From positions 64,001-128,000 of the forward strand of contig JBMOMC010000044.1 of assembly GCA_049325335.1 (NCBI GenBank): a DNA stretch of 64,000 bases, given 5' to 3'. Below the pieces are notes generated by a model. It did not search any database. It saw nothing but the letters and a program-made list of their open reading frames with translations, and had not been told where the DNA came from. How positions within the stretch are numbered: position 1 is the stretch's first letter; each line of letters opens with the position of its first letter. This document shows, one piece after another, positions 3,250 through 34,093 of this stretch. A program made the translations under genes and the position numbers. This DNA comes from Nitrospirota bacterium (lineage in GTDB: Bacteria; Nitrospirota; Nitrospiria; 2-01-FULL-66-17).

Positions 3250-3606
3250 TCAGCCCGGGGGCCACGCCATGGGGCGTCCGCCAAGCACGTGCACGTGCAG
3301 GTGGAACACGGTCTGGCCGCCGTCCGCGCCCACGTTGACGACGGTTCGGTAGCCGGACTCGGCCACGCCGAATTTCGTCGCCAGGCGGCCGACGCACGCA
3401 AAGAGCGCGGCCATGATCGACGCGTTGTCGGCAGTGACGGCCTGGAGTCCATCGAGATGCCGTTTCGGAATGACGAGGAGATGGACCGGCGCCTTGGGCG
3501 CGATGTCCTGAAACGCCAAGACCTCGTCATCTTCGTGGACAATGGTGGCCGGCAACTCCCGGCGGACGATGCGGCAGAAGAGACACGTTGATGTGGATGC
3601 GCTCAT
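3250..3606 (-). CDS. Histidine triad (HIT/HinT family) nucleotide-binding protein
   Basis: CLFC, DIAPKAPVHLL, GQTVFHLHVHVLGGR. Confidence 0.93.
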   Translation of the reverse strand: MSASTSTCLFCRIVRRELPATIVHEDDEVLAFQDIAPKAPVHLLVIPKRHLDGLQAVTADNASIMAALFACVGRLATKFGVAESGYRTVVNVGADGGQTVFHLHVHVLGGRPMAWPPG

Positions 3607-3640
3607 GACCGCTCCTGGTCAGGTCCGACGAACTGCGCGG

Positions 3641-4372
3641 TCAGCGCGCGGCTCGTCTCCGTTTGCGCGTGGGTTTGGTCGCGGTCCGTTTGCGCGACGC
3701 GGGCGCACGGTTGGTGAACCGTCGGGCCAATTCGTCGTAGATCGCGGACGGCGGGATATCGTGCCGGCCCAACGCGACCAACGTGTGAAACCACAGATCC
3801 GCGGTCTCCCACACGATCTGATCGCGCACGCCGTTCTTAGACGCGAGCAGCACCTCGCCGGCTTCCTCCGCCACCTTCTTGAGAATACGATCCTCGCCGC
3901 CAGCGAACAACGACGCCACGTACGAGCCTTCCACCGGATGCGCCTTACGGTCCTGGATGACGCGATACACGCGATCCAACACCGCCCCGCCGCCCTCCTG
4001 GTCCGGGATCAATCGTTCGCCATCCACTCGCCGGAAAAAACACGTAGGCGATCCGGTGTGGCACGCGGGCCCGACCTGATCGACTTCAACGACCAATGTG
4101 TCGCCGTCGCAATCGAGCCATACGTTCGCCACACGCTGGGTGTGGCCCGACGTTTCACCCTTCTTCCACAACGTTTGCCGCGATCGACTGAAGAAGTGCG
4201 TGAAGCCCGACTTGAGCGTCCGCTCCAGCGACTCACGGTTCATGTACGCGAGCATCAACACCCGCCCCGATCCCCGCTCCTGCACCACCGCCGGAATCAG
4301 CCCGGCCGTATCGAACCTGACCGCGCTCCAGAGGTTATCGATTTCTGACTTCTTCGCCACACCCACCCCCAC
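3641..4372 (-). CDS. hisIE: Bifunctional phosphoribosyl-AMP cyclohydrolase / phosphoribosyl-ATP pyrophosphatase
   Basis: [45 protein letters not shown]; start codon uncertain. Confidence 0.95.
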
Positions 4373-24721: not shown

Positions 24722-24752
24722 CTTGACTTCCGCTCCGAGCCGCTGGTCTAAT
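24722..24752 (+). promoter_or_regulatory. Promoter motif CTTGACTTC-N14-GGTCTAAT (copy 1, DUF2294 gene)
   Basis: Identical boxes and spacing recur at 25135-25165. Confidence 0.7.
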
Positions 24753-24761
24753 TTCACCTCT

Positions 24762-25139
24762 ATGCCTAGAACCGTCGGTCAAGTCGAAGCGGAAATTTCC
24801 ACCGCGCTGATCCAATTTGAAAAAGACTTCATGGGTCGCGGGCCGCAGGAGACCCGAGCCTACGTGATCGAAGACATGGTGTTGGTGCGACTCAAGGGCG
24901 TGTTGACGCCGGCGGAGCAGCAGCTCGCCAAAAATACCGAAGGCACCGAGCTGATCAAACGCCTGCGCTCGAATCTGCTGGAACAGGCCCGCGAGCTGCT
25001 GTCAGGCACGATCGAAAAAATCACCGGCCTGAAGGTCACCAGCCTGTACACCGACATCAGCACCAGAACCGGCGAGCGGGTCATTCTGTTTACGCTTCAC
25101 GAGAATTTGGCGGACCGGTATCGCAATACCTCGGCTTGA
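24762..25139 (+). CDS. DUF2294 / MpsC-family protein
   Basis: GQVEAEIS, FEKDFMGRGP, VRLKGVLTPAEQQL, DISTRTGERV; next to DabA/B as in mpsABC-type loci. Confidence 0.9.
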   Translation: MPRTVGQVEAEISTALIQFEKDFMGRGPQETRAYVIEDMVLVRLKGVLTPAEQQLAKNTEGTELIKRLRSNLLEQARELLSGTIEKITGLKVTSLYTDISTRTGERVILFTLHENLADRYRNTSA

Positions 25140-25165
25140 CTTCGTTCCGGAAGATTCGGTCTAAT
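25135..25165 (+). promoter_or_regulatory. Promoter motif CTTGACTTC-N14-GGTCTAAT (copy 2, dab operon)
   Basis: Overlaps the DUF2294 stop; same as 24722-24752. Confidence 0.7.
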
Positions 25166-25183
25166 AGAGTACATTTTCGGAAG

Positions 25184-25259
25184 ATAGCCCAAAGGATTCC
25201 CATGGAATCAGTTGGGCTGTAGGCCGACTCCCTGGTTGTAGGCGGGTCGGCCTTTTTTT
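25184..25259 (+). promoter_or_regulatory. Candidate transcription attenuator 1 (hairpin plus intrinsic terminator) in the dab leader
   Basis: Hairpin 25184-25220 with AG/AG internal loop; terminator stem 25221-25253 followed by T7; competing pairing AGTTGG/CCGACT. Confidence 0.65.
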
Positions 25260-25329
25260 ATTATGAGAAGGGGGGTCAACCGGCTACCGATCGACCCTGG
25301 ACGGGCCTCAGGGTGGCTCGGTGGATGGC

Positions 25330-25381
25330 AAGCCGGCAATGGTTCCACTGAGGGATCGATGCTGGCTTTTTCGTTTTTTTT
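25330..25381 (+). terminator. Second intrinsic-terminator-like hairpin in the dab leader
   Basis: AAGCCGGCA/TGCTGGCTT stem with inner GGTTCC/GGGATC stem, then TTTCGTTTTTTTT. Confidence 0.55.
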
Positions 25382-25413: not shown

Positions 25414-28041
25414 ATGCTCGCTGACTACTATCCGCTGCTGACCATCGCGGCGCCGCTCGCGGCGGGCGCCCTGACCGCGCTGCCCGCGCGGCTCATCACC
25501 GAACGACACTACCGCATCGGCGCCGTCTGCCACGCGATCGGGTTCGGCGTCGCCCTCCACACACTCTATGACGTCGCCACACGGGCGCACGGACCGATCC
25601 GTCTGCCGCTGTTCGCGTCGCCGTGGAATTTCGTTCCGTCGTTCGACCTGACGATCGACCGGCTGGCGGCGGTCATGATGCTCGTGATTTCGGGCATCGG
25701 CGCACTCCTTTACATCTATTCCATCCGCTACATGCAGCAAGAACGCGGGCAAGCGCGCTATCAGACGCTGCTCACCCTGACGATCACCACGCTGCTGTGC
25801 ATGGTGTCGAGCGCGAATCTGGTGATGCTGTTCGTGTTCTGGCAGCTTCTGAGCTGGCTGCTCTGCCTGCTCACCTATAATTATGCGCACGCGCCGACCG
25901 CCCAAGGATCGTTTCGCACGTTTGTCATTCTCCGGGCCGGAGACGTCGCGTTTCTCTCCGGAATCGTGCTCGCCTATCACCTCTATGGGACGGTGGAGTT
26001 CTCGCAGCTCTTCTCGCGAGCCGCGGCGGACGCCACCGCCTTTTCACTCCTCTGGCCGAGCAACGGCATCGAAATCAGCGGTGCTACCGCGGTGACGCTG
26101 TTGATCTTCGTCGGCGCCATGAGCAAATCGGCCCAGTTCCCACTGCATCGCTGGGTTCCTGACACGCTCTACGCCCCCACGCCCATCAGCGCGCTGCTTC
26201 ATGCGGGCATCATCAATGCGGGAGGATTTCTCATCAATCGCCTCGCCCCGCTGTATGGTATGAGCCCCTGGACCCTGCACGTCGTATTCGGCGTCGGGGT
26301 ACTCACGACAGTAGTGGGCGCGTCCATGATGTTGACACAGAACGACATCAAGAAAACGCTGGGCTACTCCACCGTCGGCCAGATGGGTTATATGATCATG
26401 GAGTGCGGACTGGGCGCGTTCGCGCTGGCGGTTTTTCATTTGATCGCGCACGGCCTGTTCAAAGCCACGAGCTTTTTGAACTCCGGCAGCGTCATCCAGA
26501 CCGCTCGGAAGGATCTCCGGCTCCCGCATCAGTCTCACGCTTCGGCGGGACCCGGGTTTTCGTCCTTGACGTGGGCGACCGGATTCATCACGTCGCTCGT
26601 GCTGCCGCTCATCATTTTGCTCGCCGCCCACGGCGTCCTGCACATCCCATTGCGAGACGCCCAGGGCGTGGTGATCTTTCTCTTCTTCAGTTGGGTCACA
26701 ACATCGCAGGCGATCCTGACGCTCTATCGCCTGCAACCGGTCGGCTCGTGGAAGGTCGCGGCGATGATGCTGGGCACCCTGTTGCTGGTGATGTTCACAT
26801 ATCTGTTCGCGGCCGAGCGGTTCACCTATTTTCTGTATCCAGAGCCCGGTGTGGTGACCGCGTATTTCCAGGCCGCGGCTCTGCCGACGTGGCTGTTCGA
26901 CTCGGTGATCGCGGTCACGGCCCTGTCGATCACGCTCGGCTGGATCGTCATCTACGCGCGGAGCCATGGCCGGTCGATCTGGGCTCCGGGCCATGTCCCG
27001 CTCTGGATCAATGAGATTTACGCGCGGCTGTATCTGCTATTCGTCAACAACGTCTATCTGGACGGCCTAGCGCTCAGAGTTCACCGGCGCGTCCGGCACC
27101 TCGCCGCGAGCCTCGAGCACAGCCCACGCGTGCTGATGGTCGGGGCGGGAATCGCCCTGGCTGTGGGATGGCATCTCGCACATCCCGCGAGCGGGTGGTC
27201 GGTCGAACCGCTCATGAGAATGTTCCTGGTTGCTGCGATGCTGCCGTTGTTCCCTCTTCACGGGATCTATGTCAGCATGTTAACTCGCACGGGGCGGGGC
27301 TCCACCGGAGTTCTTCCCGTTCTTCTGGCTGGCGCCCTGCCGTTGGCGGGCTTGTATGCTCTGTCGGGTCTGCTCCCCATGCTGGCGCCCGAGGTCCTGC
27401 GCGGCGTGGGGGTCCTTGCCTTGGTTGGAACGCTCTACGGATCGTTCAAGGCTCTGGTCCAGTGCAGGGTGCCACACGTGGTGGCCTATGGGGGCCTCGC
27501 GTACCACTCGATCGTGTGGTGGCATATGATCCGGGTCGGGCATGTCACGCCGCAAGCCGTCGTCTCCACGGCCTCGGCCGTGTTGGTGACGTGCGGGTTG
27601 CTGCTGGCATGGAATCGGGTGCGGGCGCGCTACGGTGATGTCGAACTGGGCCGAATCGGTGGGTTGGCCCGGCCCATGCCGCGCTTTGCCACATTGATGG
27701 CGCTGCTCGTGATGGCCGCCATCGGATTGCCGCCGTTCGGTCTGTTCTTTAGCTACCTCTCCCTGTGGCTCGAACCTGCGCCTCACTTCTCCTTCGGCGG
27801 ATCGCTGGGCTGGGCGATCTTCGCCCTTGCATGGTTCATGGCATCCTGGTATCTGTTCAGGCTCATGCAACGGCTCTTGTTCGGACCGCACCGCGAGGAT
27901 CTTCGGTACGACGATCTCAGCCGCGCCGAGGCCGCGCCGCTGGTCCTGGTCCTTGTGCTCCTGTTGGCCATTGGGATGTTGCCGAACGAACTGATCGATG
28001 TGAGTAGCGCCACCGTCCTGTGGCCGATCGGCGGTGAGTAA
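25414..28041 (+). CDS. dabB: DabB/MpsA-like membrane subunit (NuoL-like) fused to a degenerate NuoM-like module, copy 1
   Basis: IDRLAAVM, KSAQFPLH.W.PD...PTP, HAGIINAGG, YST.GQMG, HL.AHG.FKA; C-terminal GGLARPMPRF..GLPPFG. Confidence 0.88.
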   Translation: MLADYYPLLTIAAPLAAGALTALPARLITERHYRIGAVCHAIGFGVALHTLYDVATRAHGPIRLPLFASPWNFVPSFDLTIDRLAAVMMLVISGIGALLYIYSIRYMQQERGQARYQTLLTLTITTLLCMVSSANLVMLFVFWQLLSWLLCLLTYNYAHAPTAQGSFRTFVILRAGDVAFLSGIVLAYHLYGTVEFSQLFSRAAADATAFSLLWPSNGIEISGATAVTLLIFVGAMSKSAQFPLHRWVPDTLYAPTPISALLHAGIINAGGFLINRLAPLYGMSPWTLHVVFGVGVLTTVVGASMMLTQNDIKKTLGYSTVGQMGYMIMECGLGAFALAVFHLIAHGLFKATSFLNSGSVIQTARKDLRLPHQSHASAGPGFSSLTWATGFITSLVLPLIILLAAHGVLHIPLRDAQGVVIFLFFSWVTTSQAILTLYRLQPVGSWKVAAMMLGTLLLVMFTYLFAAERFTYFLYPEPGVVTAYFQAAALPTWLFDSVIAVTALSITLGWIVIYARSHGRSIWAPGHVPLWINEIYARLYLLFVNNVYLDGLALRVHRRVRHLAASLEHSPRVLMVGAGIALAVGWHLAHPASGWSVEPLMRMFLVAAMLPLFPLHGIYVSMLTRTGRGSTGVLPVLLAGALPLAGLYALSGLLPMLAPEVLRGVGVLALVGTLYGSFKALVQCRVPHVVAYGGLAYHSIVWWHMIRVGHVTPQAVVSTASAVLVTCGLLLAWNRVRARYGDVELGRIGGLARPMPRFATLMALLVMAAIGLPPFGLFFSYLSLWLEPAPHFSFGGSLGWAIFALAWFMASWYLFRLMQRLLFGPHREDLRYDDLSRAEAAPLVLVLVLLLAIGMLPNELIDVSSATVLWPIGGE

Positions 28042-30652
28042 CATGTGGCGCGAGTACTACCCTCTGTTAATCCCCGCGGGGCCGGTGGTCGCGGCGCTGC
28101 TGACGGCCCTCCCGTCCCGACTGATCCGCGAGTGGCACTATCGGATCGGGACCTTCGCGCACACGGTGGCGTTCGGCTGCGCCGTGGTGTTGCTCATCCA
28201 GGTGGCGGGGTCTTCGGAGCAAACACCCGTTCGCCTCGATCTGTTCCCCTCGCCGTGGCGGTTTGTCCCATCCTTTACGCTCGCGGTCGACCGCCTGGCC
28301 GCGGTGCTGATGGTGGTGATCTCGGCGATCGGCGCGCTGCTGTATTTCTACTCGATCCGGTACATGCAGCAGGAACGCGGCCGCGCCCGGTACCATGCCC
28401 TGCTCTCCGTCCAGATTGCGGTGCTGCTCGGCATGGTTTCCAGCGCCAATCTGGTCATGTTGTTCGTGTTCTGGCAGCTACTCGGGTGGTTGCTATCCCT
28501 CCTGTCCTACAACTATGCGCATCCACCGACCTCGCAGGGGGCATTCCGAACGTTTATCATGTTGCGGCTTGGGGACATTGTCTTTTTGTCGGGCATCGTC
28601 CTCGCGTTCACCTTGTACGGGACTGTAGATCTCTCGCAGCTCTTTGTCCGGGCCGCGGAGAATCAGTCCACGCTCACCCTGTTCTGGCCCGGAAGCGGGC
28701 TGGACGTCAGCGGCGCGACGGCCGTCACGCTGCTGATCTTTGTAGGGGCCATGAGCAAGTCCGCGCAGATCCCGCTGCACATGTGGCTACCGGATTCGCT
28801 GTACGCCCCCACCACGATCCACGCCCTGCTTCACGCCGGCATCATCAACGCCGGCGGCTTCCTGCTGACGCGTCTCGCCCCGCTCTTCGTCCTCGCGCCC
28901 ACCACGCTTCATGTGACGTTCGCGGTCGGCCTGCTCACCGCGCTGTTGGGCGCGTCCATGATGCTGACGCAGAACGACATCAAGAAGACCCTCGGCTATT
29001 CCACCATCGGACAAATGGGCTACATGATTATGGAATGCGGGCTGGGCGCCTTTTCCCTGGCCGTGTTTCACCTGATCGCCCACGGGCTCTTCAAGGCGAC
29101 GATCTTTCTCAACTGCGGCAACGTCATTCATCTCGCCCGCCGGGAACCACGATCACCGCACAGGCCCGATGCGCGCGGGTTGACCTCGTTCTCGGCGATC
29201 CCCTGGGCGACCGGTTTCATCACGACGCTGGTGCTCCCCCTCGTCATTTTGCTGGCCGCGCATGGAGTGCTCCAGATCCCGTTGCGAATCGGCGAGGGGG
29301 GCGTGATCTTTCTGTTCTTTAGCTGGGTGACGTCCTCGCAGGCGATCCTCACGCTGTATCGTCTGCGAGCGGTCGAGTCGTGGAAGGTCGCGGGCCTCAT
29401 GCTCGTCGCGCTGCTGCTGGTGATGTTCACGTATTTGTTCGCGGCCGAGCGCTTCACGCGCTTTCTGTTTCCGGATCCCGGCGTGGTCACCGCGTATTTT
29501 GAAGCCGCCGCCCTGCCCGGCCCCGTGTTCGACGCGCTCATCGCGGTGACCGCACTCGTGGCCGCCATGGGATGGATTCTGATTTACTCCCGGAGCCACG
29601 GTCGACCGATACCCTTCCCCGCGCGGATCAGCGCACTGCACACCATCGGGTACCTGTTCCTGGTGAACCGGCTGTACCTCGACGGTCTTGCACTGCGATT
29701 GGGACAGGGATTCAGCCGCGCGATCCAGGCGCTCGATCACAACCGCCTGTTTCCACCGGTTGCGGCGCTGCTTGCCGCGGTGCCCGCGATCGCCGTGTCG
29801 GCGGGAACGTTTCCGGATCTCGCGGGCACGCGGATCGCGCTCTGTACACTGACGGCGCTCGCGCTTCCCTTGTTTCCGCTTCACGGCGCGTATGTGCTCG
29901 TCCTGACCCGGTTGCCCGGATTCGCCTCCTCGGCCATGGCGCTCCTGTTGCCGCTGGCCGGTCTATATGGAGCGGCGAGTGTCCTCCCCGAGCTGCCCGC
30001 CAGGGTATTGACGGGGGTGAAAGTGCTGGCATTGTCCGGGGCTGTCTATGGCTCGATTAAAGCGCTCGCGCAGGTTCGGGCGACCGGGTTCATCGCCTAC
30101 GGGGGGGTGGCGCTCTATTCGATTCTCTGGTGGCATGTGGCGGTGGCCGGCCGCGTGATGTCACAGGACGCCATCTTCGCTGGGGCCGCCGCGCTGGTCG
30201 CCGCGGGGCTGTGTCTGGCGTGGCGCGCACTGCAGATACGGTACGGCGATCTCACCATGAACCGGATCGGCGGACTGGCCCGTCCCATGCCGCGGTTCGC
30301 CACCCTGTTGGCCCTGCTGGTCATGGCGGCTGCGGGGTTGCCGCCCTTCGGCCTGTTCTCCGGGTACGTCGCCCTGCTGCTCGATCCATCGAACGAGGTC
30401 GCCCTCGGTAGCTCCGTGGCCATCGGGGTCGTGCTCCTGGTATGGTTCATTGCGTCGTGGTATCTGTTCAAGCTGATGCAGCGTCTCCTATTCGGCCCCC
30501 ATAGGCCGGATCTTCCCTACCAGGATCTTCGCCCTGTAGAAATTGCGCCGCTGGTCGCCGTTCTGCTCATGCTCCTGGCGCTGGGCGTGGCGCCGCATAC
30601 GCTCATCGCTGAAGTCGACACCCTTATGCTGACAGCTTGGAGTCCTCGATGA
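28034..30652 (+). CDS. dabB: DabB/MpsA-like membrane subunit with NuoM-like extension, copy 2 (tandem paralogue)
   Basis: Colinear with copy 1 over its whole length; same motifs. Confidence 0.88.
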   Translation: MSNMWREYYPLLIPAGPVVAALLTALPSRLIREWHYRIGTFAHTVAFGCAVVLLIQVAGSSEQTPVRLDLFPSPWRFVPSFTLAVDRLAAVLMVVISAIGALLYFYSIRYMQQERGRARYHALLSVQIAVLLGMVSSANLVMLFVFWQLLGWLLSLLSYNYAHPPTSQGAFRTFIMLRLGDIVFLSGIVLAFTLYGTVDLSQLFVRAAENQSTLTLFWPGSGLDVSGATAVTLLIFVGAMSKSAQIPLHMWLPDSLYAPTTIHALLHAGIINAGGFLLTRLAPLFVLAPTTLHVTFAVGLLTALLGASMMLTQNDIKKTLGYSTIGQMGYMIMECGLGAFSLAVFHLIAHGLFKATIFLNCGNVIHLARREPRSPHRPDARGLTSFSAIPWATGFITTLVLPLVILLAAHGVLQIPLRIGEGGVIFLFFSWVTSSQAILTLYRLRAVESWKVAGLMLVALLLVMFTYLFAAERFTRFLFPDPGVVTAYFEAAALPGPVFDALIAVTALVAAMGWILIYSRSHGRPIPFPARISALHTIGYLFLVNRLYLDGLALRLGQGFSRAIQALDHNRLFPPVAALLAAVPAIAVSAGTFPDLAGTRIALCTLTALALPLFPLHGAYVLVLTRLPGFASSAMALLLPLAGLYGAASVLPELPARVLTGVKVLALSGAVYGSIKALAQVRATGFIAYGGVALYSILWWHVAVAGRVMSQDAIFAGAAALVAAGLCLAWRALQIRYGDLTMNRIGGLARPMPRFATLLALLVMAAAGLPPFGLFSGYVALLLDPSNEVALGSSVAIGVVLLVWFIASWYLFKLMQRLLFGPHRPDLPYQDLRPVEIAPLVAVLLMLLALGVAPHTLIAEVDTLMLTAWSPR

Positions 30653-33600
30653 ACCCATTGGAAGTGGAAGCGCGCCCGCGCTATCAGGAGACCCAACGGA
30701 CCGAACTACGCACGCTGGTCCGGATCGCGAGCGAGATGGTCGCGCAGTACTGGCCCATGCGGACCTTCGTGCACCACAATCCGTTGCACGGGCTCGAGGA
30801 ACTTCACTTCGAGGAAGCCGCGCGGCGCGCGCGCCAGGCGCTCGGTGGAATGACCTATCTGCCGAACGAGGTGTTTCGCGACTATGTGCGCACGGGGCGC
30901 ATTCGGTCAGATGAGATCGATGACGCCCTCAAACCATTGGCCCAGGATCACCAGGTTGCCCTGGGCGATCGCAAGCTGACGCATCTGGACGTGCTGCGTG
31001 CCCATCTGCTGCACGGCATGTCCGCCCCTCCGGACGACGTCCTGGATGCCATGATCGAACGGCGGAAAGATCGCCGTGCGATCCTCGCGCTCGCGGACCG
31101 CCTGGGCCGCGAAGCCCCACGGGCGATCGAAGAGGCTCGCGCCCAAGCGGAGCTGGCCGCGATCGGCAGATCGATCACGCTGGCCGCCTGGTGCGATCGC
31201 GCGTTGGGCACGCAGGTGACCGAACAGATCAACCGGGAAATGATCAAGTGGTGCGAGGCGTTCCTCGACGAGGAGCACGCCGCCTGGTCCATGCCGGGAC
31301 GAGACATGGGGTTCTACTCCGCGTGGAAGTGGCTCGCGAGCCTGGAGTGGTCCCCCTGCGGTATCGCGCGAAGCCGCCGGAAGCTGGCCGACCTCCCGGA
31401 CAATGCGGAAGAGGCCTTGCTTGATCACTTGGCGGTCCTGGGCGTTTCGCCGGACGCGTGGCAGGACTATCTCGCGTCCCACTTCGTGGCTATGCCTGGC
31501 TGGCCAGGCTTTATCAAATGGCGTGCGGATCAGACCGACTATGAATGGCAGCAGGCCTATCCGATCGACCTGATCCAATACCTGGCGGTGCGCGTGTGGT
31601 ACGAGCGAGAGCTGGTCCAGCAGGTCTGCCGGCGGGAACTGGGTGGCGACGGGACGGTGGAGGCCATCCGCGCCGCGGCGACATCAAAGGCCGCCCGCGC
31701 CGCCGAGAGTCCTGACACCCTTCGGCGCACCGCGGCGTGGCGCCTGCTGGCCCTGGCCCATGCGTTGGACGTGGCACCTCCGGCGCTCATGGACACGGAG
31801 CCAGCGATCCTCCAGACGCTGGTGGACTGGCTGGATGCCTTTCCGGAAGCGGCGCACGGACCGGTGTGGCTGCGAGCGTTCGAGGCCGGCTATCGGGACC
31901 GGCTCTTGGAGCAGCTCAGGCCGCAAGTGGTCCAGTCTCCCAAGGCGACTGCGGTTCGCCCGCAAGCGCAGGCGGTCTTTTGCATCGATGTGCGCTCGGA
32001 ACCGTTCCGGCGGCACTTGGAAGCGGTGGGCGACTTTGGCACATTCGGTTTCGCCGGATTCTTTATTGTCTTCATCCGCTATCAGACCATGGGCGGCCAC
32101 CATGAAACCGATCAGTTTCCGGTGATCATGAAGGCCAAGAACTCGGTGCGCGAAGTACCCCGCATCTATCAGAGTCAATTGCTGTCCCGGCACCGAACCG
32201 GGACCAAGCTGGTTCACACCGCTCACACGCTCCTGCATGATCTCAAGGAAAACGTCGTCACCCCGTACGTGATGGTGGAATCGCTCGGCTGGTTCTACAG
32301 CCTGCCGCTGATCGGCAAGACCGTACTCGCCACGTGGTACCAGCGAGCGGCCGCACGGCTGCGCCGGGTGCTGGTACCGCACATTTCTACCGCGATGACC
32401 GTGGACAAGCTGTCTCGGGAAGAAGTGACCGAGATGCTGGCGGCCGAGCAGCGAGGGGTGATCCGCCGTGCGCTGCAGGAGCGATTCGGCGATCGTGACC
32501 TGAATCTGTCGCTCGAGCGGCTCGAATACCTGCGCAAACGCGCGTTGGAGGAACCCTCCGACGATCAGCACCCGCCCAAAGGGGCGCTGACCACCGACGA
32601 GGAGACGGCCTTCATCGACGTCTTACGCGAACAGTATCGAATCAACCAAGGCGGCGCCTTTTCGCGCATGGAGCGCATTACGCGCATGGGGTTCACGCCA
32701 TCCGAGCAAGCCTTCACCGTGGAGACGGCGCTCCGCATGATGGGCCTGACCGAGAACTTCGCCAGGCTCGTCCTCTTCTGCGGCCACCGGAGCACGTCGG
32801 ACAACAATCCCTTCGAGGCGGCGCTGGATTGCGGGGCCTGCGGCGGCAATACCGGCAAGCCGAACGCCCGCGTCGTGGCCGCCATGGCCAACAAGGCGCA
32901 GGTGCGTCATGCGCTGGCGAAGAACGGCCTCATCATTCCGCAGGACACCTATTTCATCGCCGGCCAGCACGACACCACCACCGATACGGTCGAATTGTTC
33001 GATCTGGAAGACATCCCGCATACCCATATGAGCGACCTCGATCGCTTGCTTCGCGGGCTGGAGAAGGCGGGCCGGCGGACGAGTCGCGAACGATGCGGTC
33101 GATTCCCCGAGTTGCCGCCGGATCTCTCCCTGTCGAAAGCCGTGCGGGAGACCAGCCGGCGGAGCGGCGATTGGAGCCAGGTCAGGCCGGAGTGGGGGCT
33201 CTCGGGCAATGCCGCCTTCGTGATCGGGCGACGAGAGTTGACCCACGGCGTGGACCTCGCCGGTCGGGCCTTTCTCCATTCGTACGATTACCGCGGGGAC
33301 GCCAACGGTCGCCTGCTGGAAATCGTGATGACCGGCCCGCAGGTGGTCGGTCAGTGGATCAATATGGAGCACTACTTCTCGACGGTGGACCCGGAAGTCT
33401 TCGGCGCGGGCAGCAAGATCTACCACAACGTGGTGGGACGCTTCGGTGTCATGTCCGGACCTCAGAGCGATCTGCGCACGGGGTTGGCCTGGCAGACCGT
33501 CATGGACGGACCGCGACCGTATCACGAGGCCATGCGGCTGCTCACGCTGATCGAGGCGCCCCGCAATCTGATCCTGCAGATCGTGCAGCGCCATCGCGTG

Positions 33601-33735
33601 CTGCGCAATCTGTACGACAACGAGTGGGTCCGCCTGGTGGCCCTTGACCCGGAAGAGGGAAGTTTCTTTTACTATCTACCCAAGCAGGGATGGACGCCCG
33701 TTTCCGACGGTCGGCATTCCGACACCACGTTGTGA
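30649..33735 (+). CDS. dabA: DabA/MpsB (DUF2309/UPF0753) carbonic-anhydrase-like subunit of inorganic carbon pump
   Basis: WPM.TFVHHNPL, FCIDVRSE, FGFAGFF, GH, LDCGACGG, RPEWGL, FLHSYD; ATGA overlap with dabB copy 2. Confidence 0.95.
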   Translation: MNPLEVEARPRYQETQRTELRTLVRIASEMVAQYWPMRTFVHHNPLHGLEELHFEEAARRARQALGGMTYLPNEVFRDYVRTGRIRSDEIDDALKPLAQDHQVALGDRKLTHLDVLRAHLLHGMSAPPDDVLDAMIERRKDRRAILALADRLGREAPRAIEEARAQAELAAIGRSITLAAWCDRALGTQVTEQINREMIKWCEAFLDEEHAAWSMPGRDMGFYSAWKWLASLEWSPCGIARSRRKLADLPDNAEEALLDHLAVLGVSPDAWQDYLASHFVAMPGWPGFIKWRADQTDYEWQQAYPIDLIQYLAVRVWYERELVQQVCRRELGGDGTVEAIRAAATSKAARAAESPDTLRRTAAWRLLALAHALDVAPPALMDTEPAILQTLVDWLDAFPEAAHGPVWLRAFEAGYRDRLLEQLRPQVVQSPKATAVRPQAQAVFCIDVRSEPFRRHLEAVGDFGTFGFAGFFIVFIRYQTMGGHHETDQFPVIMKAKNSVREVPRIYQSQLLSRHRTGTKLVHTAHTLLHDLKENVVTPYVMVESLGWFYSLPLIGKTVLATWYQRAAARLRRVLVPHISTAMTVDKLSREEVTEMLAAEQRGVIRRALQERFGDRDLNLSLERLEYLRKRALEEPSDDQHPPKGALTTDEETAFIDVLREQYRINQGGAFSRMERITRMGFTPSEQAFTVETALRMMGLTENFARLVLFCGHRSTSDNNPFEAALDCGACGGNTGKPNARVVAAMANKAQVRHALAKNGLIIPQDTYFIAGQHDTTTDTVELFDLEDIPHTHMSDLDRLLRGLEKAGRRTSRERCGRFPELPPDLSLSKAVRETSRRSGDWSQVRPEWGLSGNAAFVIGRRELTHGVDLAGRAFLHSYDYRGDANGRLLEIVMTGPQVVGQWINMEHYFSTVDPEVFGAGSKIYHNVVGRFGVMSGPQSDLRTGLAWQTVMDGPRPYHEAMRLLTLIEAPRNLILQIVQRHRVLRNLYDNEWVRLVALDPEEGSFFYYLPKQGWTPVSDGRHSDTTL

Positions 33736-33751
33736 CGAGGAGGAACATAGC

Positions 33752-34093
33752 ATGACCGGTCTCTCGCTTCACCCGATGAAAGAAATCCGGATCATCATCC
33801 AGGGCGAACACATCAAACTCGCCACCGACCTGTTGGACGGCATCAAGGCCACCGGCTACACGATCTTCCACAATATCTCGGGCAAGGGGCATCACGGGTT
33901 TCACACCGCCCATCCGATGTTCAACGAAATGGACAGCCTGGTGATGCTCTCGACCGTGGTCCCGCAAGAGAAGGTGGAGCCGATCCTCGCCGGGCTGAAG
34001 CCGCTCTTCGAACGCTACACCGGCGTGATGTTCGTGTCCGACGTGGCCGTGAGCCGGGCCGAATACTTTTCCGCGGCCACCGGCCGGAAGTAA
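33752..34093 (+). CDS. PII-like (SbtB/DUF190-type) signalling protein
   Basis: LHPMKEIRIII.GE, GYTI..N.SGKG.HG, GVMFVSDV.V.R; GGAGGA RBS. Confidence 0.85.
   Translation: MTGLSLHPMKEIRIIIQGEHIKLATDLLDGIKATGYTIFHNISGKGHHGFHTAHPMFNEMDSLVMLSTVVPQEKVEPILAGLKPLFERYTGVMFVSDVAVSRAEYFSAATGRK

Follow-up and report, generated by a model that had tools for sequence, protein, structure and literature searches.

The window analyzed here is a stretch of 64,000 nucleotides from the source genome, labeled G000, and it carries a locus in which 274 nt separate mpsC (DUF2294) from two dabB-like genes, which are followed by dabA and a P-II gene. Nitrospirota is the label on close relatives of the proteins and the RNA of this locus. 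Its features are as follows.

24723..24752, plus strand: promoter-like site of mpsC, proposed from the sequence (−35 at 24723-24728, 18-nt spacer, non-canonical −10 at 24747-24752)
24762..25139, plus strand: mpsC / DUF2294, 125 aa (Pfam PF10057, 132 bits)
25136..25165, plus strand: promoter-like site of the dab leader and operon (−35 at 25136-25141, 18-nt spacer, non-canonical −10 at 25160-25165)
25177..25227, plus strand: element 1, antiterminator fold (minimum-energy fold of the growing RNA, and covariation)
25221..25259, plus strand: intrinsic terminator 1 (fold and covariation)
25274..25381, plus strand: element 2, a long hairpin with a second terminator (fold)
25414..28041, plus strand: dabB-like membrane subunit 1, 875 aa (PF00361 and PF00662; 5′ of dabA)
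28034..30652, plus strand: dabB-like membrane subunit 2, 872 aa (PF00361 and PF00662)
30637..33735, plus strand: dabA (DUF2309), inorganic carbon transporter subunit (PF10070, 897 bits)
33752..34093, plus strand: P-II-family protein (PF00543, 79.8 bits)

The match of DabA to PF10070, with two PF00361 genes upstream of it, identifies a DAB/MpsAB operon. We take the P-II-family protein to be SbtB-like, judging by its context; a P-II gene lies 3′ of dabA in most relatives too. The downstream set of dabB, dabA, and P-II resembles that of the DAB/MpsAB pumps, as far as these are described in the accessible parts of bioRxiv 10.1101/476713 and PMC6689103, from which the present locus differs in having two dabB genes. 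Tandem full-length dabB-like genes (25414-30652) are found also in genome G002, while most relatives have a single copy. G000 itself has a single mpsC and a single model-level copy of the RNA described below.

The initial annotation had placed a dab promoter upstream of the leader. A consensus-like site is indeed found at 25136-25165, with a −35 that overlaps the mpsC stop codon, but it is non-canonical, and a promoter and terminator scan tool made no call for either promoter-like site or for the bulged terminators, in the case of the promoters because the −10 lacks its usual A. The mpsC site has the same form. In G000, TTGAC is followed by TAnnnT at a spacing of 17 nt 93 times and at 18 nt 177 times (17.6 expected), so that a spacing of 17 to 18 nt is the norm of this genome, which fits the promoter-like site of the leader. 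Of 23 Nitrospirota-like metagenome copies of the element, 20 lie behind this same non-canonical arrangement, compared with 2 of 71 others, and copies distant from mpsC are also preceded by such a site. Judging from the sequence, we infer that transcription of the leader starts near 25172. The second-position A of the −10-like hexamer is nearly always missing from Nitrospirota leaders, unlike in the common promoters of the genome. The promoter-like site of mpsC ends 9 nt 5′ of the ATG, and the mRNA would thus be nearly leaderless.

Element 1 consists of a basal helix (25177-25180/25224-25227), a 3x3 purine loop, a 9-bp stem, a 2x2 purine loop, and an apical stem, and this fold is the one of lowest energy (−28.9 kcal/mol) for RNA made up to 25230-25240. 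Terminator 1 has its arms at 25221-25230 and 25244-25253, followed by T6 at 25254-25259, and its 5′ arm overlaps the basal helix, which makes the two structures mutually exclusive. The leader thus contains, by sequence and fold, an intrinsic terminator and, in the basal helix, a conserved alternative structure that excludes it. For the region 25150-25290, the folding energy is −56.9 kcal/mol (z = −3.67), a value not reached by any of 200 shuffled sequences. The hairpin with a symmetric AG/AG 2x2 loop that had been described at 25184-25220 is there and lies inside element 1, as is the claimed terminator with its T6. The element is larger than first drawn: the coordinates of hairpin and terminator stand, but its start lies further 5′, at 25177, and a second hairpin and terminator had been missed. 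In this second unit, element 2, the basal pairs 25274-25276/25332-25334 overlap the second terminator, whose arms lie at 25330-25338 and 25361-25369 and whose U-run extends to 25381. The layout of element 2 is present in 9 non-redundant loci, among which the copy in the window is the most degenerate.

We compared two sets of sequences. The first (A1) comprises 17 pattern-picked Nitrospirota leaders, that is, 21 listed leaders minus one false match and three variants of family f3, drawn from 40 regions around dabA and 30 around mpsC in relatives. In A1, hairpin and terminator show two-sided changes in 10 of 25 pairs, a score that none of 500 shuffles reaches. The second set (A3) comprises 69 sequences: the window copy and 68 of 98 terminator-tailed copies, with sequences more than 88% alike dropped. 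The antiterminator fold is paired in 83.0% of A3 cells and has 197 two-sided changes compared with 75.8 ± 10.3 in shuffles (0 of 500), counts that are inflated by relatedness, since kin are not independent; the lowest covarying pair is missing from 15 of the 69 sequences. The search pattern had set the GG, CC, and loop bases in advance, which makes their invariance in A3 circular, and the covariation evidence therefore rests on pairs with one free side. The pair just below the GG/CC pairs is CG in 26, UA in 22, UG in 6, and unpaired in 15 of the 69 sequences; the pair just above the 3x3 loop is CG in 42, UA in 14, UG in 10, and unpaired in 3. Across 107 copies, these two pairs are Watson-Crick in 75 versus 46.9 and 82 versus 54.3 cases. 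The pair above the 3x3 loop is mostly C-G in a low-GC group of copies and U-A or U-G in the higher-GC, Nitrospirota-like group. It therefore runs against base composition, which for one of the two pairs counters the worry that relatedness inflates the signal. Covariation in homologues, which had been named as a check on the element, is thus present in hairpin and terminator (A1) and in the basal helix (A3).

The initial annotation had assigned the switch to a different helix, an antiterminator AGTTGG/CCGACT (25210-25215/25224-25229) within a three-state layout. The complementarity exists in the sequence, but we found no support for it as a switch. In G000 its pair probability is about 1e−16, and a fold forced to contain it reaches −24.9 compared with −46.4 kcal/mol. 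None of its 6 pairs shows two-sided changes in the 17 sequences, a score matched by 141 of 500 shuffles, and it is paired in 65.5% of cells with 0 changes in the 69 sequences, a score matched by 500 of 500. Its partial pairing in Nitrospirota comes from the resemblance of the 3′ arm of the hairpin to the 3′ arm of the terminator. With neither pairing probability nor compensatory change in this antiterminator, the three-state layout loses its support, and with it a PyrR-type three-state attenuator.

The RNA occurs well beyond the window. A strict pattern found 12 loci in 185,579 genomes, all titled Nitrospirota or a subgroup of it, and a relaxed pattern found 119 loci in metagenomes (39 with flanks of only 300 nt), where, for an assumed library size, about 0.7 would be expected by chance. 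The 119 loci reduce to 97 non-redundant copies, 88 of which are followed by a terminator-like tail; the pattern ended after the first bases of the terminator 5′ arm, and the tails lie beyond it. An earlier strict pattern, run on 98 loci, had found only the window element and one unrelated place. In Acetoanaerobium noterae (Bacillota), the element sits right after mpsC (model R1, 33.6 bits; model R2, 56.2 bits), and one downstream protein of the low-GC group is labeled Bacillota. For the MpsC beside a high-GC copy, one homologue (80% identical) is labeled Tepidisphaeraceae, a single label that we take to point to Planctomycetota. The RNA hence occurs in Nitrospirota, Bacillota, and a high-GC group, with metagenome groups set by a rule of thumb under which a Nitrospirota-like copy (L224) fell in the long-hairpin group. 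Genome G078 has an R1 match (28.3 bits) that consists of a bare terminator, and we judged it to be false. The mpsC-sbtA spacer of Anoxybacillus reaches 25.8 bits with R1 and has no R2 match, and its membership is doubtful; on the Anoxybacillus plasmid (L122:6820-6990, 7361-7466), where mpsC precedes sbtA, long structured stretches and terminators flank mpsC.

A search of Rfam 15 with the window and 16 other loci gave no match at gathering score, and at E ≤ 10 chance-level hits only. Neither this RNA nor a regulatory role for MpsC turned up in the published literature that was covered, which mostly excludes subscription journals. The RNA was not found in the main texts of PMC5737381 and PMC11109978, whose supplements may list the motif, or in PMC8632094 and one supplement. 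Given its covariation, the lack of an Rfam match, the promoter-like site that precedes it, and its co-occurrence with MpsC, the view of an uncatalogued, attenuator-type dab leader holds: the conserved attenuator RNA upstream of the dab operon is real.

The base of the fold is retained in several variants that were identified by position or by a model: a form in family f3, a form in family f25 that lies 5′ of a gene similar to monomeric isocitrate dehydrogenase (IDH; structure judged by eye), and element 2. In the f3 loci (L046-L058), an extra conserved hairpin lies upstream of the variant element, and mpsC is divergent. In two loci (L072, L067), hairpin-terminator units recur behind the first terminator, between element 1 and dabB, and look like duplications or insertions that arose locally. 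In another (L102:2474-2561 and 3597-3684), near-identical pairs of promoter-like site and element lie 1.1 kb apart, the second 5′ of dabB. In genome G027 (L255:319-431), the apical loop is expanded by short tandem repeats of the element's own 3′ arm, and the element lies 5′ of an isocitrate-dehydrogenase-like gene.

Among 60 relatives, 32 encode MpsC and 18 have an R2 match at E ≤ 0.001. All 18 clear RNA carriers encode MpsC (18 of 32 MpsC-positive versus 0 of 28 MpsC-negative relatives), which bears out the suggested co-occurrence with DUF2294, in genomes that are samples of relatives and not independent events. Weaker R2 matches occur in G021, with MpsC, and in G042 (83% complete), where MpsC was not found. 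Ten of the 14 MpsC-positive relatives without a clear R2 match belong to family f3. The variant element of this family is present at 8 of the 10 dab loci that have mpsC, with a looser pattern fitting the remaining two, and at 0 of the 4 that lack it. In families f18-f37 (114 genomes), MpsC is found in 6 genomes and R1 matches in 6, with 5 shared; the R1 match in 1 of 108 MpsC-negative genomes is marginal and false. RNA and mpsC lie on separate contigs in some carriers (G027, G029, also G068, G102). In metagenomes, mpsC is within the available flanks of 63 of 97 copies; for copies with at least 600 nt upstream it is in the flanks of 36 of 48, at 130 nt upstream or less in 30. In the short-hairpin group, the RNA begins 8 to 20 nt after the MpsC match in 28 of 32 copies, which leaves no room for a promoter of its own. 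Only 11 of the 33 copies in the high-GC long-hairpin group have mpsC nearby. One locus (G077:C1:1887241-1888820; L113, L120) contains an element, two mpsC paralogues, and a second element, a layout that resembles antiterminator operons.

The MpsC family has 1661 representatives at 50% identity. The AlphaFold model of MpsC (pLDDT 95) is an alpha/beta domain with near-invariant residues R26, R43, K66, and R69. PF10057 is its only Pfam domain, with no CAT, PRD, HutP, ANTAR, PyrR, or TRAP domain. Sequence comparison with solved structures gave no useful match and comparison with the protein atlas no usable one. Foldseek returned nothing at E ≤ 0.001, HutP, ANTAR, PyrR, TRAP, and KH folds included, and in structural comparison the best Z was 6.6, with RbfA at Z 5.3 (rmsd 3.4 over 88 residues), within the noise of the tool; the absence of a significant match indicates neither a new nor a different fold. 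Deletion of mpsC in Staphylococcus aureus caused no growth defect, and the authors call the gene dispensable (PMC6689103, as far as accessible), a statement repeated in the accessible parts of PMC8552792 and PMC13508789.

Given these observations, we lean toward the view that MpsC is an RNA-binding antiterminator for the tandem attenuator of the dab leader, active at low inorganic carbon. Comparison and modeling show the structure, the way it overlaps the terminator, its association with MpsC across genomes, and the kinds of genes that follow it; binding by MpsC, the ON polarity in the cell, and the signal are proposed. The 5′ leader of dabB-dabB-dabA-PII would be a transcription attenuator with two tandem elements. 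As it grows, element 1 would fold into one long hairpin, at whose base a conserved 5′ YYGG would pair with the first bases of the terminator. Unaided, the stronger terminator is modeled to win, and transcription would stop near 25259. A factor that grips the long hairpin via its two purine-rich internal loops would block the terminator and allow the pump genes to be read. This factor would most likely be MpsC, encoded just upstream, and it would act when CO2/bicarbonate or a carboxylation product is low.

The polarity of this model is opposite to the one proposed initially, in which stabilizing the hairpin shuts off the pump genes. Because the covarying basal helix covers the 5′ arm of the terminator, whatever stabilizes it should, in the modeled competition, give read-through. 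In G000, the terminator state is modeled at −46.4 and the antiterminator state at −35.0 kcal/mol, and with the terminator favored by 11 kcal/mol, control would have to be kinetic. It is nonetheless conceivable, if unlikely, that MpsC is a terminator-promoting repressor, which at plentiful carbon contacts the upper hairpin alone or pulls the basal helix apart, whereas free RNA reads through. In RNA ending at the terminator 5′ arm, the basal pair forms unaided (p > 0.5 in 97 of 98 sequences, versus 0 of 98 for the AGTTGG/CCGACT pair), so read-through could be the default; the upper hairpin of Nitrospirota is strong and compatible with the terminator, and repression would fit the normal growth in air of the S. 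aureus mpsC mutant. Such a repressor is, however, at odds with the preference of free RNA for the terminator and with the lack of covariation in the AGTTGG/CCGACT antiterminator that belongs to that model. In addition, in the group where a C follows the 5′ purine run, the middle stem forms only about half of its pairs (mean of 2.6 of 5), and the fold therefore probably needs a stabilizer.

The genes behind the element bear on the signal. The first gene was assigned in 79 of the 97 metagenome copies and is always co-oriented with the element there. Genes for inorganic carbon uptake and conversion follow in 19 copies (dabB 12, sbtA 3, beta-carbonic anhydrase 3, sulP 1), and purK (10), PEP carboxylase (3), and IDH (1) genes in another 14. 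The remainder comprises MFS transporters of the lactate/oxalate-formate type (12), a DUF4914 operon (8), DUF6671 (4), mpsC (4), DUF3360 (1), DUF2459 (1), and signaling, stress, or other genes (16), with 18 copies without assignment. The genes for DUF6671, DUF4914, and DUF3360 proteins (L135, L139, L140, L160, L196, L201), of which the DUF4914 gene often lies behind a gene of about 160 aa of no family, are candidates for inorganic-carbon roles. Low inorganic carbon is the condition under which pumps, carbonic anhydrase, and PurK are required. Since the switch is predicted to be an ON switch, its effector should be active at low carbon, which argues against direct binding of bicarbonate by the RNA. 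In S. aureus, mpsA expression falls 1.7- to 2.5-fold in 5% CO2, significantly in one strain (PMC6689103, accessible part). The accessible part of the DAB paper (bioRxiv 10.1101/476713) names regulators of the LysR and Crp/Fnr types and not DUF2294, and in that of PMC7266159 bicarbonate comes up only in connection with ykkC.

Of the 33 copies in the high-GC long-hairpin group, 16 lie 5′ of signaling or stress-type genes and 12 are without assignment. Seven high-GC copies (L136, L146, L157, L164, L181, L210, L238) precede PAS/histidine kinase, KaiC-like, CsbD, and transglycosylase-associated genes, which suggests that the element is re-used there for a stress or signaling regulon. These unrelated genes weaken the claim of an inorganic-carbon signal, and the place of the group outside the carbon regulon favors a protein go-between over one small ligand.

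The gene content thus also bears on a further alternative, an ON riboswitch whose purine loops bind an ion or metabolite directly, with mpsC as a regulon member that is inherited along with it. ON riboswitches have this architecture of a conserved fold overlapping a terminator, the loop bases are conserved across phyla, mpsC is itself the gene behind the element in G077 and in 4 of the 97 metagenome copies, and degenerate copies of the RNA occur in two genomes without an MpsC match (G019, 95% complete, and G042). We nevertheless consider a riboswitch improbable: in most cases (63 of 107 matches) mpsC lies upstream, beyond the control of the element, the RNA and MpsC go together across genomes, the spacing between the loops varies among the variants of the element, the high-GC group serves unrelated genes, and an ON switch that bound bicarbonate would turn on uptake genes at the time of least need.

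That the switch is under the control of a more general factor, for instance transcription speed or some housekeeping RNA-binding protein, and that MpsC has another job in the same operons, appears very unlikely. MpsC has no recognized RNA-binding fold, and it is present without an RNA match in 7 of 10 genomes of family f15 and in G180, while R2 found no match in one staphylococcal dab locus (n = 1). Against this, the RNA occurs almost exclusively together with MpsC (0 of 28 MpsC-negative relatives at E ≤ 0.001), and the two remain associated while the downstream genes change completely. Finally, the element lies directly 3′ of mpsC here and in most copies, as a mere mpsC terminator with an incidental hairpin would, a notion that we consider highly improbable given the conserved structure 5′ of the terminator, the copies distant from mpsC that lie behind their own promoter-like site and 5′ of sbtA or idh-like genes, the copies 5′ of mpsC, and the co-oriented gene that follows wherever one was assigned.

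As an MpsC-dependent antiterminator, the element would work by analogy with BglG/HutP-type systems, yet belongs to neither family. In BglG/SacY/LicT-RAT systems, an internal-loop hairpin overlaps the 5′ arm of a terminator, the regulator gene is in the operon, and binding leads to read-through. Element 1 is likewise an internal-loop hairpin overlapping the terminator 5′ arm, and the order element-mpsC-mpsC-element in G077 resembles the bgl layout. In contrast, MpsC (125 aa, PF10057 only) has no CAT or PRD, and the RNA differs from RAT in being longer (45 to 70 nt), in its symmetric purine loops, and in its inorganic-carbon targets. HutP of the Bacillus subtilis hut operon binds single-stranded UAG repeats, destabilizes a terminator, and is switched by a small ligand. 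MpsC shares with it that a small single-domain protein is encoded just 5′ of the terminator that it is thought to open, but here a conserved paired fold competes with the terminator, and MpsC has no Pfam or significant fold match to HutP. PyrR attenuators, of which there are several per operon with the regulator gene inside, turn genes off as PyrR stabilizes an anti-antiterminator; the multiple attenuators and the regulator gene within one operon are shared, whereas the three-state layout is unsupported here and there is no Rfam match. Na+-I (DUF1646) and other ON riboswitches of Rfam 15 also have a small conserved fold that overlaps a terminator 5′ of transport genes, but the present element has no gathering-score match to them and is tied to one protein family.

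In sum, the leader holds an uncatalogued RNA, with a corrected switching helix and predicted polarity, and a second element. More tentatively, and with less confidence than we place in antitermination itself, we conjecture that MpsC/DUF2294 may be a new family of RNA-binding proteins that sense CO2 or bicarbonate directly, and that with its RNA it may form a carbon switch in at least Nitrospirota and Bacillota, re-used for other genes in the high-GC group. To our knowledge, how low CO2/bicarbonate is sensed and pumps are induced outside cyanobacteria and proteobacteria is largely open. An RNA of 50 nt, a candidate partner of 125 residues, and a predicted polarity make this question of carbon sensing testable. 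If the proposal is true, the DUF4914, DUF6671, and lactate/formate-type MFS group would become candidate inorganic-carbon genes, and a function would be found for the widespread MpsC family, which has been set aside as dispensable (PMC6689103, PMC13508789, accessible parts).
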